Positions 21,001 to 24,000 of a DNA stretch of 64,000 nucleotides are shown here, piece by piece; within the stretch, counting starts at the first letter, position 1, and the number at the start of each line of letters is the position of its first letter. The position numbers are program-made. The DNA comes from Escherichia coli (GTDB lineage Bacteria > Pseudomonadota > Gammaproteobacteria > Enterobacterales > Enterobacteriaceae). Location of the stretch: assembly GCF_030384885.1 (NCBI RefSeq), contig NZ_CP128613.1; one strand, written 5' to 3'.

Positions 21001-24000
21001 GCGAAGTTCCGATTACCACCAGATAGAAAAACGCCAGAATCAGGCTGCCATTAACCACGAAGTTTGTTCCTTGCCCGGCATAGAAGGGCAGCAGGATTAG
21101 ACCACCGATCAGCATACTCCAGCCGACGACCGGTAACGTGCCATAGCGGGCAATCAGCGTTGAGGGATAGGTGGTATAGAATGCAGCAGCAAATGCCGAG
21201 GCAATACCCCAGAATAACGCGGCCGGAGAGATCGATAATGACGTCGGATTACCGTGTGTCACCAATAAAAAAGTCCCGATCAGCGATGTCAAAATAGCGC
21301 AAAAAACCAGAATGCCCGGGCGGGATTTACGCACCAGTGAGAACCAGGCGACGATAATCGTCGGTGAGAGGAATTGCAGCACCGTTGCCGTGGCAGCATT
21401 CGATTTTTCAATGGTTAGCAAAAAAGTGAGCTGTACGGTTAGCGCGCCAACCACGGAAAAAATCAGCAGACTAATGGCATCTTTGTGATTGTTAATAATA
21501 GAAAAGATTTTATCGCCATGCACAAATGACAGCGTCAGCAGAATCAAACCGGCGAATATCAAACGCGTCATAGTCAAAAACTGCGACGACATCTGACTTT
21601 GCTCCATGATGTATTGCGCGCAGACCCCTGAACTTCCCCACAACACGGCGGCAATCAGAACGTTCAGCATCCCCTTTCTGGTGGAACCCATTTTTCCCTC
21701 TGCATACTGTTTTGTCGTTTATGTATGCAGGCATGATAGCAAAAATGGCGAGGATGACTCTGTTTGCGCCACGCCGATTTTTCTTAGCTCAGACTGGTGA
21801 GCTAAATATCTTTAATAAACAGCAGGCAAATCATCGCAATACCCAACATCCCTATCGCCAGCCAGAACAACGCGTGGTAGCTCCAGATTTCAACCATAAT
21901 TCCGTCAACAGAGCCGGCGATAATCCAGCCGACGCGTGAGGTATTTGCATATAACGTTGTCGCAGAGCCTATTTTTTCAGGCATCAGATCCTGAAAATAA
22001 AGCATGCCGATACCACAGAGAATACCAAGGAAAATGGCATTTAGAATTTGCAATTCCAGCTCAACTGCCGGAGTCGTCGCCATGAGTACGCTGGCGTAAA
22101 AACACATACCACTCACGATAGCAATGAGCATTAATAGTCGCTTGCCAATACGTTTCATGTAATAGCCTGCGATTAACATCATCGGAATTTCCAGACCGGC
22201 AGCAATACCAATCATTTCTCCAGCCAGTTTATCGGTTAGATGCAGTTCATCAATAATAAATAGCGGCATATTTATCATGTAGAGATTATTCGCCGCCCAC
22301 ATCATTGAACAGACTACAAAAAGTAGCCGTGTATCCCGCTTTCTATGGATGGAGGGTAAAATTTCTACGGGTTGGGTAACGACAGGAATATTTCTTTGTA
22401 TTGATGGCAAAAACAACCAGACTATCAGCCCGCAAATAACAAATGCGATGGCAGCGGTGAGATACATCACTTTAAAACTAAATCCCATTGCCAGCTCATA
22501 AGCGAGCGGTGGCCCGATAACCCAGGCAAGCGAGATCTGAGCACGTAAAAATGTACTGAACATGACCGTCTCACGGCCTGTTCTGTCGGCGTGTTCACGG
22601 GCGAGGGCGAACATTTGCGGGTTTGCAGTGGAAGCAAAACTACTCAGAAGTACGCCCGTAGAGAGGAGAATGAAGTAGTTGCGATTCCACGCAAAAAGAG
22701 TGCAGGCCAACACTCCAAATAAGCAACATAGCAGGATCAGTAATTTACGGTCGCCTTGTTTATCGGAGTGCCTTGCCAGAAATTGACTGACCAGAATTCC
22801 CATAATAGCGCTACCGGTGAAGAAAAAACCTACCATTATAGGACGGGCTTTCAGTTCATCTGCGAGGAATATACTTAGGGTGGGAGTCTGGAGAGCGCCC
22901 GCAATACCAGTCAGAAAGGCGACAAGTAAAAATGCCGCGGCAGTGAGATCAAGTATTTTTGATGGAGTGGTAGCCATTTTTTGCATTCTTCTGAATCACC
23001 GGGCGACAAAATATAACTGAGTTACAAATAAGTACCAGTCGAATGAGTATTATATTAAGAATTTTTGAGTATCGCTGATACAACCAGAAAGCAATGCTAG
23101 CGCAATATTATAGGGCCAGCAATTGAGATTATTAGCAAAAGCATGTTAAGAATTAATCACCGAATTTATATATTAATTATAGTAAGGCAATGAGCTATTT
23201 TTGATAGTAAAAATAAAACAAGTTTATTTGATATATTAAATGAAAAAATTAATCTTGATGGCAGTCTGATTATTGGTGAAGTTTATAGGTCAGTTTTTTT
23301 CGCCAGCGGTTAAAGGAATAGAATCGTCGTATAAAAAAAGGTGTTTTGGGGCGTGTAAAACAACATCTTCACCTTAATGGCGATACAGTTGGTTGAGAGT
23401 CAGCAGGGGGGCAAATCACCTGCAAATAAACACGGCGCATGCTGGCGCGAATATCGCGGATGCGTTCGAGGACAGAAGAACCGACAGGCGGATTCTTCAG
23501 TCGCTCATCGTCCATCACAAAACCTTTGATCAGGTATTCCTGAAGCCGATTAAATATTGAGCATTAGAAAATATCTGGATTGACTGTATTACAAGAGGTT
23601 GGAGAACGTCAGTAGAGGCAAATTGGCGGAAGATCACAGGAGTCGAACCTGCCCGGGACCGCTGGCGGCCCCAACTGGATTTGAAGTCCAGCCGCCTCAC
23701 CGGAGACGACGATCTTCCGCGCCTCGATTGCTACATGGAGGCGGGGCGCATTATAGCTACTTCCTTGAGTTTCTACATCCCCCAGATCAGTTTTTTCCGC
23801 CTAATACATGCAGCGTATTATCACGAAAGCATTATATTTCATATAAAACCCATATTTTACAATGATATATGAGCGTAATTTACGCTACCACGATCACATA
23901 AAACAAGAATCATAAATTAATAACCAGATATCGGAATATTCGCTCTCACAGGGATGGTTTACAAAATGCGTTATCGGTCTCAGCACCCCTATAGCATCAA

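Follow-up and report, generated by a model that had tools for sequence, protein, structure and literature searches.

The spacer between selC and setC in this Escherichia coli chromosome is an ordinary intergenic region of the K-12 type, neither expanded nor strain-specific. It is probably a mosaic of old, mostly inert DNA, made up in part of the stump of a rhuM pseudogene and the fossil of a promoter box used in type III secretion. The rhuM remnant is in itself nothing new: K-12 carries it under the name yicT (b4653), and PGAP lists it as a rhuM pseudogene. The box, which no gene follows, has not been described previously and amounts to a small new finding. Both lie in the stretch of 64,000 nucleotides that we analysed (contig NZ_CP128613.1 of assembly GCF_030384885.1), referred to here as the window. 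Positions are collected in Table 1.

Table 1. Positions of selC, setC and the parts of the spacer between them, and of the other copies of the box in the window
Feature	Position	Strand	Basis
setC, sugar efflux transporter, 394 aa	21802–22986	-	Gene calls
setC upstream region	22987–23188		Allele and E. albertii alignments
Orphan MxiE/InvF-type box, AATGAGCTATTTTTGATAGT	23189–23208	+	20-mer match; Table S2 of PMC9769918
-10-like hexamer TATATT, 23 nt after the 20-mer	23232–23237	+	Read from the sequence
AT-rich non-coding filler, from the box promoter region to the rhuM fragment	23238–23383		Six-allele alignment
rhuM internal fragment, K-12 yicT (b4653)	23384–23546	-	PF13310; PGAP; blastn to LF82 rhuM
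selC-proximal backbone segment, 77 bp	23547–23623		Alignments with LF82 and E. albertii
selC, tRNA-Sec, anticodon UCA	23624–23718	-	ARAGORN; Rfam RF01852, 83.8 bits
Box, 209 nt upstream of a 421-aa hypothetical gene (1695–2957), ilvN–uhpA insertion	1466–1485	+	20-mer match
Box, upstream of a hypothetical gene (ORF 3150–4688), same ilvN–uhpA insertion	3039–3058	+	20-mer match
Box, 73 nt upstream of eilA	13930–13949	-	20-mer match
Box, 59 nt upstream of eicA	19202–19221	-	20-mer match

Extent and composition of the spacer

The spacer is 637 bp in length (22987–23623) and is faced by the 3' end of selC. The initial annotation had the tRNA-Sec gene correctly on the minus strand; its CCA was placed at 23623, whereas the 3' end given by ARAGORN is 23624. 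The same annotation described about 640 bp of AT-rich DNA between the two genes, and this agrees with a G+C content of 37% for the spacer, compared with 47% over the window as a whole; around the box it drops to 11–23%. The further claim that the spacer is expanded has to be abandoned. In K-12 MG1655 the spacer is 636 bp long (selC end 3836316, setC start 3836953) and can be aligned with that of the window over its full length, at approximately 96% identity and with only one indel, of 1 bp. Using megablast, at least 80% of the spacer was found in 3617 of 5426 complete E. coli genomes at 90–99% identity and, among the matches listed, nearly all carry the annotation 'rhuM: RhuM family protein'. 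The comparison across strains therefore gives the same spacer in K-12 and most E. coli, which disposes of an expansion, while the protein match that had been proposed for its open frame, to RhuM, is upheld (see below). Between 10373 and 26212 the window differs from E. coli strain 2013C-4282 at only three positions. In strains that carry islands at selC, the spacer is unbroken on the far side of the island.

Counted from selC, the spacer consists of a 77-bp backbone segment, a rhuM fragment of about 160 bp, some 150 bp of filler, the orphan box and the setC upstream region. The sequence of the 77-bp segment is also present behind partial, attR-like copies of selC in LF82 and E. albertii, and it is not homologous to the 5' portion of the complete rhuM gene of LF82. 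In an alignment of six alleles the filler varies more than any other part of the spacer, with single-base indels among strains, and it appears to be AT-rich sequence that drifts fast. The setC upstream region is well conserved among the E. coli alleles and retains recognizable homology in E. albertii, the setC orthologue of which is 90% identical. A metagenome contig with an 81% relative of SetC proved to hold a setB/setC recombinant next to fruB and is uninformative. A search of Rfam at a permissive E-value returned the tRNA-Sec as the sole match, with nothing in the spacer, and a scan for consensus promoters and terminators gave results at or below chance.

The rhuM fragment and the history of the selC flank

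The minus-strand frame at 23369–23563 gives a translation that agrees with the one reported in the initial annotation, and the likeness to RhuM-family proteins suggested there is borne out by a match to Pfam Virulence_RhuM (PF13310; E = 6.8e-13, 48.9 bits, query 5–49, model 50–98 of 252). PGAP places 'rhuM, incomplete', a pseudogene, at 23384–23545, and yicT, at 3836425–3836556 in K-12, corresponds to about 23384–23515 of the window. The fragment represents approximately residues 121–178 of the 345-aa RhuM of LF82; the blastn alignment covers 23417–23546, and the best-kept 69 bp are 98.6% identical to the LF82 gene. It carries a 24-bp in-frame deletion (8 codons missing), has neither the N-terminal part, the C-terminal part nor a start codon, and retains about 50 of the 345 codons; it is a pseudogene. 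Deletions would have taken both ends of a RhuM-family gene to leave this piece. K-12 yicT is the same fragment at the same locus and on the same strand, in a spacer of equal length apart from the single 1-bp indel; the differences are this indel and point changes, located elsewhere in the spacer. In our literature searches the string yicT turned up only with unrelated meanings, and no treatment of the K-12 remnant was found in connection with rhuM and selC.

The rhuM of Salmonella SPI-3 is likewise a RhuM-family gene located at selC. Intact rhuM genes, likewise members of PF13310, occupy the same address on the 3' side of selC in LF82 (WP_001280585) and E. albertii (CP034212). In LF82 a distance of 53 bp separates selC from the intact 345-aa gene; next come a hypothetical gene and yicL, and setC is missing. 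Behind the gene there is a partial copy of the selC 3' end together with the sequence that normally follows selC, and further out a second, older rhuM fragment (approximately residues 163–250). In E. albertii CP034212 the order is an island fragment (integrase, DUF4942), intact rhuM, partial selC, backbone spacer, setC, yicL, yicS and eicA. From these gene orders, and from the partial selC copies, it follows that intact rhuM is carried at the far end of inserts at selC, as part of their cargo. The selC junction is visible in other E. albertii strains; in the type strain an IS1 is inserted about 365 bp upstream of setC, some 100 nt beyond the box-like element described below, and the junction is not displayed. 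Among the 5426 E. coli genomes the flank varies, with at least 3617 of the K-12 type and 844 of the LF82 type (intact rhuM without setC).

The intact genes are situated between selC and its partial copy, whereas the fragment in the window lies 77 bp from selC, beyond the backbone segment. Partial selC repeats bound intact rhuM in both LF82 and E. albertii, but a search for the selC 3'-end repeat (last 16–30 nt, up to 4 mismatches) found none in 22987–23623; the sole match is at 22107, inside setC (16 nt, 4 mismatches). Gene calls and annotation place no integrase or other mobility gene in the spacer. The proposal that this DNA is the residue of a former selC-integrated island thus stands in part. 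The rhuM fragment and the intact rhuM cargo at the site agree with it, and it is plausible that the stump derives from selC-linked island DNA; the selC repeat and a mobility gene are absent from the spacer. Since the stump lies beyond the 77-bp backbone segment and the spacer holds no selC repeat, it is best read as debris of an older event, common to most E. coli and otherwise truncated in the LF82-type lineage.

The orphan box: family, age and alternatives

The window was scanned with the family 20-mer AATGAGCGATTTTTGATAGT at up to 3 mismatches, and five copies were found where 0.01 would be expected by chance (Table 1). Four of these have a same-strand ORF downstream, the exception being the copy in the spacer. 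The two hypothetical genes in the ilvN–uhpA insertion are paralogous, and NCBIfam assigns their proteins to no family. The regulator encoded by eilA scores above the NCBIfam cut-off for the HilA/EilA family, and the translocator chaperone encoded by eicA, of the SicA/LcrH type, exceeds that of TIGR02552. E. albertii has an identical box before its eicA. Gene-bearing boxes elsewhere (eicA, eilA and effector-like genes) are 21–209 nt upstream. In K-12 the same 20-mer occurs 21–63 nt before the first qualifying ATG of yccE, yfdF and yjgL, and its positions 3–19 are exactly the MxiE-box matches given for these genes in Table S2 of PMC9769918. These boxes are required for MxiE/IpgC-dependent expression (PMC9769918; PMC9241512).

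When a collection holding one genome per species was scanned, multiple copies were confined to E. albertii, with five, and a 'Collinsella' MAG that includes at least two contigs of E. coli DNA; the other hits were scattered singles, about as numerous as chance predicts. Each of the five E. albertii copies has an ORF behind it, and two of these ORFs encode proteins with pentapeptide repeats, whose similarity to PipB2, PipB and SopA stays below threshold. The E. coli representative of the collection gave no match. We take this genome to be a B2 type strain, which would explain the result.

The 17-bp core of the orphan box, TGAGCTATTTTTGATAG (23191–23207), is oriented towards selC. The box is identical to the family consensus at 19 of 20 positions and is unchanged in six diverse alleles. 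A match with no more than one mismatch is expected 2.7e-7 times in the spacer at the base composition of the spacer itself, and we therefore consider the box to be a true member of the family. As the initial annotation had it, there is no gene behind this copy: no ORF of at least 60 aa begins within 320 nt, and it is the only copy in the window of which this holds. Shorter frames do lie behind the box, and indels disrupt them from strain to strain; one of 34 aa (23273–23377) is frameshifted in K-12 and other alleles. The box has the same chromosomal flavour (TGAGCG...TGATAG) as those of yccE, yfdF (icaT) and yjgL (icaR), unlike the pINV consensus GTATCGTTTTTTTAnAG, and it differs from these three in that they precede genes.

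The core matches the validated yccE box, TGAGCGATTTTTGATAG, at 16 of 17 positions, the difference being T for G at box position 6. In the ipaH9.8 promoter a G6C change reduced activity six-fold, placing position 6 among the four most sensitive, and an A16C change likewise reduced it six-fold. Nine positions are conserved in functional Shigella boxes (G1, G6, T7–T10, T12, A14 and A16); the orphan box keeps six of them, differing at 1, 6 and 7, compared with seven in yccE and eight in yfdF. The same GCT variant precedes apparently intact ORFs at two E. albertii loci, and, on a contig that resembles E. coli, what may be a start codon. The native activator may therefore accept T at position 6. We considered the change from G to T at this position as proof of inactivation and rejected it, since the same variant precedes ORFs elsewhere. 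The TATATT hexamer begins 24 nt past the 17-bp core, 3–4 nt more than in the Shigella geometry and within the range of the family, 12 of 18 members of which have TAnnnT hexamers at offsets 18–23. Judged by its sequence and placement, it would be compatible with a promoter.

The age of the box is indicated by E. albertii. A gap-tolerant alignment of the region upstream of setC in that species revealed an orthologous element, AATG-GCGATTTTTGATGATG, with matching flanks (...TATATTAAT... box ...AAATAA...). The element is flanked by the partial selC copy on one side and by setC on the other; it falls outside the island, and it is not followed by a gene. G6 is kept, one base of the 5' half has been lost and position 16 is G, so that the critical positions that have changed differ: position 6 in the E. 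coli copy and position 16 in that of E. albertii. A box was therefore already present upstream of setC in the common ancestor, and from the alignment it seems to have drifted independently in the two species. The E. albertii element belongs to the backbone rather than to the island, and so the box is not part of the rhuM remnant, as had been suggested initially.

The same observation bears on the idea, also raised in the initial annotation, that a box-regulated gene has been lost. An island at selC might once have held rhuM together with an effector, and a deletion might then have taken the effector and left the box by the rhuM stump. Rather in keeping with this, LF82 and E. albertii carry rhuM as island cargo beside partial copies of selC, all other copies of the box are followed by a gene, and large replacements on both sides of a shared rhuM core set the K-12-type flank apart from that of the LF82 type. 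However, the E. albertii element is distal to the partial selC copy and lacks a gene, and no ORF follows the box in either species. Searches with 15 box-driven proteins against the spacer and the alternative flank of LF82 (tblastn) gave noise, the best E-value in the spacer being 0.028 over many comparisons, and a sensitive blastn search of the 5426 genomes found no second, diverged copy of the box-bearing segment. Together with the absence of the selC 3'-end repeat from the spacer, these results make such a loss decidedly improbable.

It is unlikely, though less so, that the orphan box is a live promoter, which when the type III regulators are active would produce a non-coding or antisense transcript, or a tiny peptide, across the rhuM fragment towards selC. 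The near-perfect match to the consensus, its constancy in six alleles, the occurrence of the GCT variant before ORFs elsewhere and a TATATT hexamer inside the family range are what such a promoter would display, and the half of the spacer between setC and the box is better conserved than the filler beyond it. Nevertheless, what lies downstream does not look like a product. There is no conserved ORF, the 34-aa frame being broken by indels in K-12 and other alleles; no Rfam family is present; the plus strand has no terminator-like site, the sole one being on the minus strand; and the 150 bp that follow the box are the most variable part of the spacer. The E. albertii orthologue, moreover, is altered at position 16 and has lost a base in its 5' half. 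Weak evidence in the same direction comes from the MxiE regulon study in S. flexneri, which lists neither setC nor selC in its supplementary tables; intergenic transcripts were not scored in it.

Finally, the box might be nothing but AT-rich control DNA of setC, an H-NS nucleation site or part of a divergent setC promoter, with the match to the family incidental. The local G+C content of 11–23% and the conservation of the setC-proximal half of the spacer fit such a role, and the MxiE box resembles the high-affinity site of H-NS, by which box-bearing genes are silenced (PMC9769918). Against this, so close a match would arise in the spacer only 2.7e-7 times, the start of setC lies about 200 bp away, in the direction opposite to that in which the box points, and boxes of the MxiE type act in a fixed orientation, overlapping the -35 region. 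For practical purposes this explanation is excluded.

We therefore favour a fossil, which would have been without a gene upstream of setC before E. coli and E. albertii separated, and which since then would have changed at different critical positions in each lineage. The box is presumably inactive now. Its match to the consensus at 19 of 20 positions, unchanged in six alleles, and the TATATT at a family-like offset count against an inert fossil, and some residual promoter activity is possible; a divergence of about 4% within E. coli is too low over 20 bp to tell constraint from neutrality.

Relation to type III secretion regulons

Boxes of this type are cis elements at which an AraC-family activator, in complex with a translocator chaperone, turns on genes for type III secretion substrates. 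In Shigella they are read by MxiE and IpgC, and in E. coli, we infer, by the ETT2/eip system. The origin of the chromosomal MxiE boxes was raised in PMC9241512, in which EivF with YgeG did not activate yjgL or yfdF, a result that counts against a reading by ETT2; eicA, eip and eilA are not mentioned in that paper. The same box stands before eicA and eilA in the eip island, which K-12 does not have. These two boxes suggest ETT2/eip, perhaps through EivF and EicA, as the native reader, and the native activator would accordingly be encoded by ETT2. There is a parallel in the InvF–SicA promoters of Salmonella SPI-1 (sicA, sopB and sopE), where an AraC-family activator and a translocator chaperone act at a site that overlaps the -35 region. 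In the window a box stands before eicA, the gene for a SicA homologue, just as the InvF site does before sicA; the likeness drawn here is one of logic.

We tentatively propose a native Escherichia regulon, older than the split between E. coli and E. albertii and read by ETT2, most simply by EivF and the SicA/IpgC-like chaperone EicA; the orphan box would be one of its fossils, and the Shigella MxiE would cross-react with it. On this proposal the MxiE boxes of icaR/icaT and yccE, which puzzled those who studied them, would be the element that precedes the eicA–eip operon, eilA, the two ilvN–uhpA genes and several effector-like genes of E. albertii.

The spacer itself is of little importance, consisting as it does of an annotated pseudogene in a normal spacer, with no strain-specific event to explain. 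The orphan box is of modest value as a dated marker: boxes of the MxiE/InvF type were already in place on the chromosome of Escherichia when E. coli and E. albertii diverged. As such it bears on the origin of the chromosomal MxiE boxes of yccE, yfdF and yjgL and on the identity of their regulator in E. coli, for which the link between the box and eip is a more interesting lead than the spacer.

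The selC–setC spacer and neighbouring rearrangements

In E. coli LF82 the intact rhuM lies between selC and a second, partial selC 3' end (about 7279–7235 of L004, the LF82 comparison locus), beyond which lies a second rhuM fragment at about 7137–6996. This second fragment is the older, and the rhuM and selC copies of LF82 are nested remnants at a single site. In E. coli Z142-6 only the first 55 bp of the spacer remain; the rest has given way to an integrase fragment and two copies of IS1, with the loss of both the rhuM stump and the box. Contig ERZ650280, from a metagenome, has fruB and yicL-nlpA-yicS on either side of a gene with 81% identity to setC; this looks like a recombinant of the paralogues setB and setC.

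At the deletion junction within the window, the 3' portion of adeD, on the minus strand, runs directly into internal sequence of the iatC/air adhesin gene. Compared with strain 2013C-4282, the 5' part of adeD, adeQ, yicN, a RelE/HTH pair, nepI and approximately 7.9 kb of iatC are missing.

Coordinates of the features discussed
Feature	Sequence	Position	Remarks
Hypothetical gene pair with boxes	window	1466-4688	two paralogues, between ilvN and uhpA
Deletion junction adeD/iatC	window	9846-10373	breakpoint 10372/10373
Box at eilA	window	13930-13949	73 nt upstream
Box at eicA	window	19202-19221	59 nt upstream
Box grouped with eilA/eicA copies	L123	8142-8161	comparison locus
Box grouped with eilA/eicA copies	L127	6248-6267	comparison locus
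Intact rhuM region	L004	6996-8480	E. coli LF82
Five box copies	L008-L012		E. albertii NBRC 107761
setC-like gene region	L122	1-2493	contig ERZ650280
Replaced spacer	L114	6001-8600	E. coli Z142-6

Boxes at eilA, eicA and elsewhere

We found no mention of the eilA and eicA box copies in the published papers on chromosomal MxiE boxes that were consulted. The E. albertii eicA box is identical to that of the window. The five boxes of E. albertii NBRC 107761 each precede an ORF, and the encoded N-termini are rich in Ser, Asn and Ile. Two of these ORFs encode pentapeptide-repeat proteins whose similarity to PipB2, PipB and SopA is sub-threshold.

Escherichia-type boxes were also observed on several contigs (L080–L085) of the 'Collinsella sp.' metagenome-assembled genome Map_57_008 (JAIJJM01). 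This bin is contaminated, and two of its contigs were shown to be E. coli DNA: L080 corresponds to the eip locus (93% identity) and L082 to the ilvN–uhpA insertion (77%).

The ilvN–uhpA insertion

Of 5426 E. coli genomes, 1109 carry this insertion, and its alleles fall into two classes, at about 98% and about 77% identity. Its hypothetical genes are AT-rich paralogues (26% mutual identity, E = 1e-23), each preceded by a box, and neither is assigned to a family in NCBIfam. Their products are candidate substrates of the ETT2/eip regulon.
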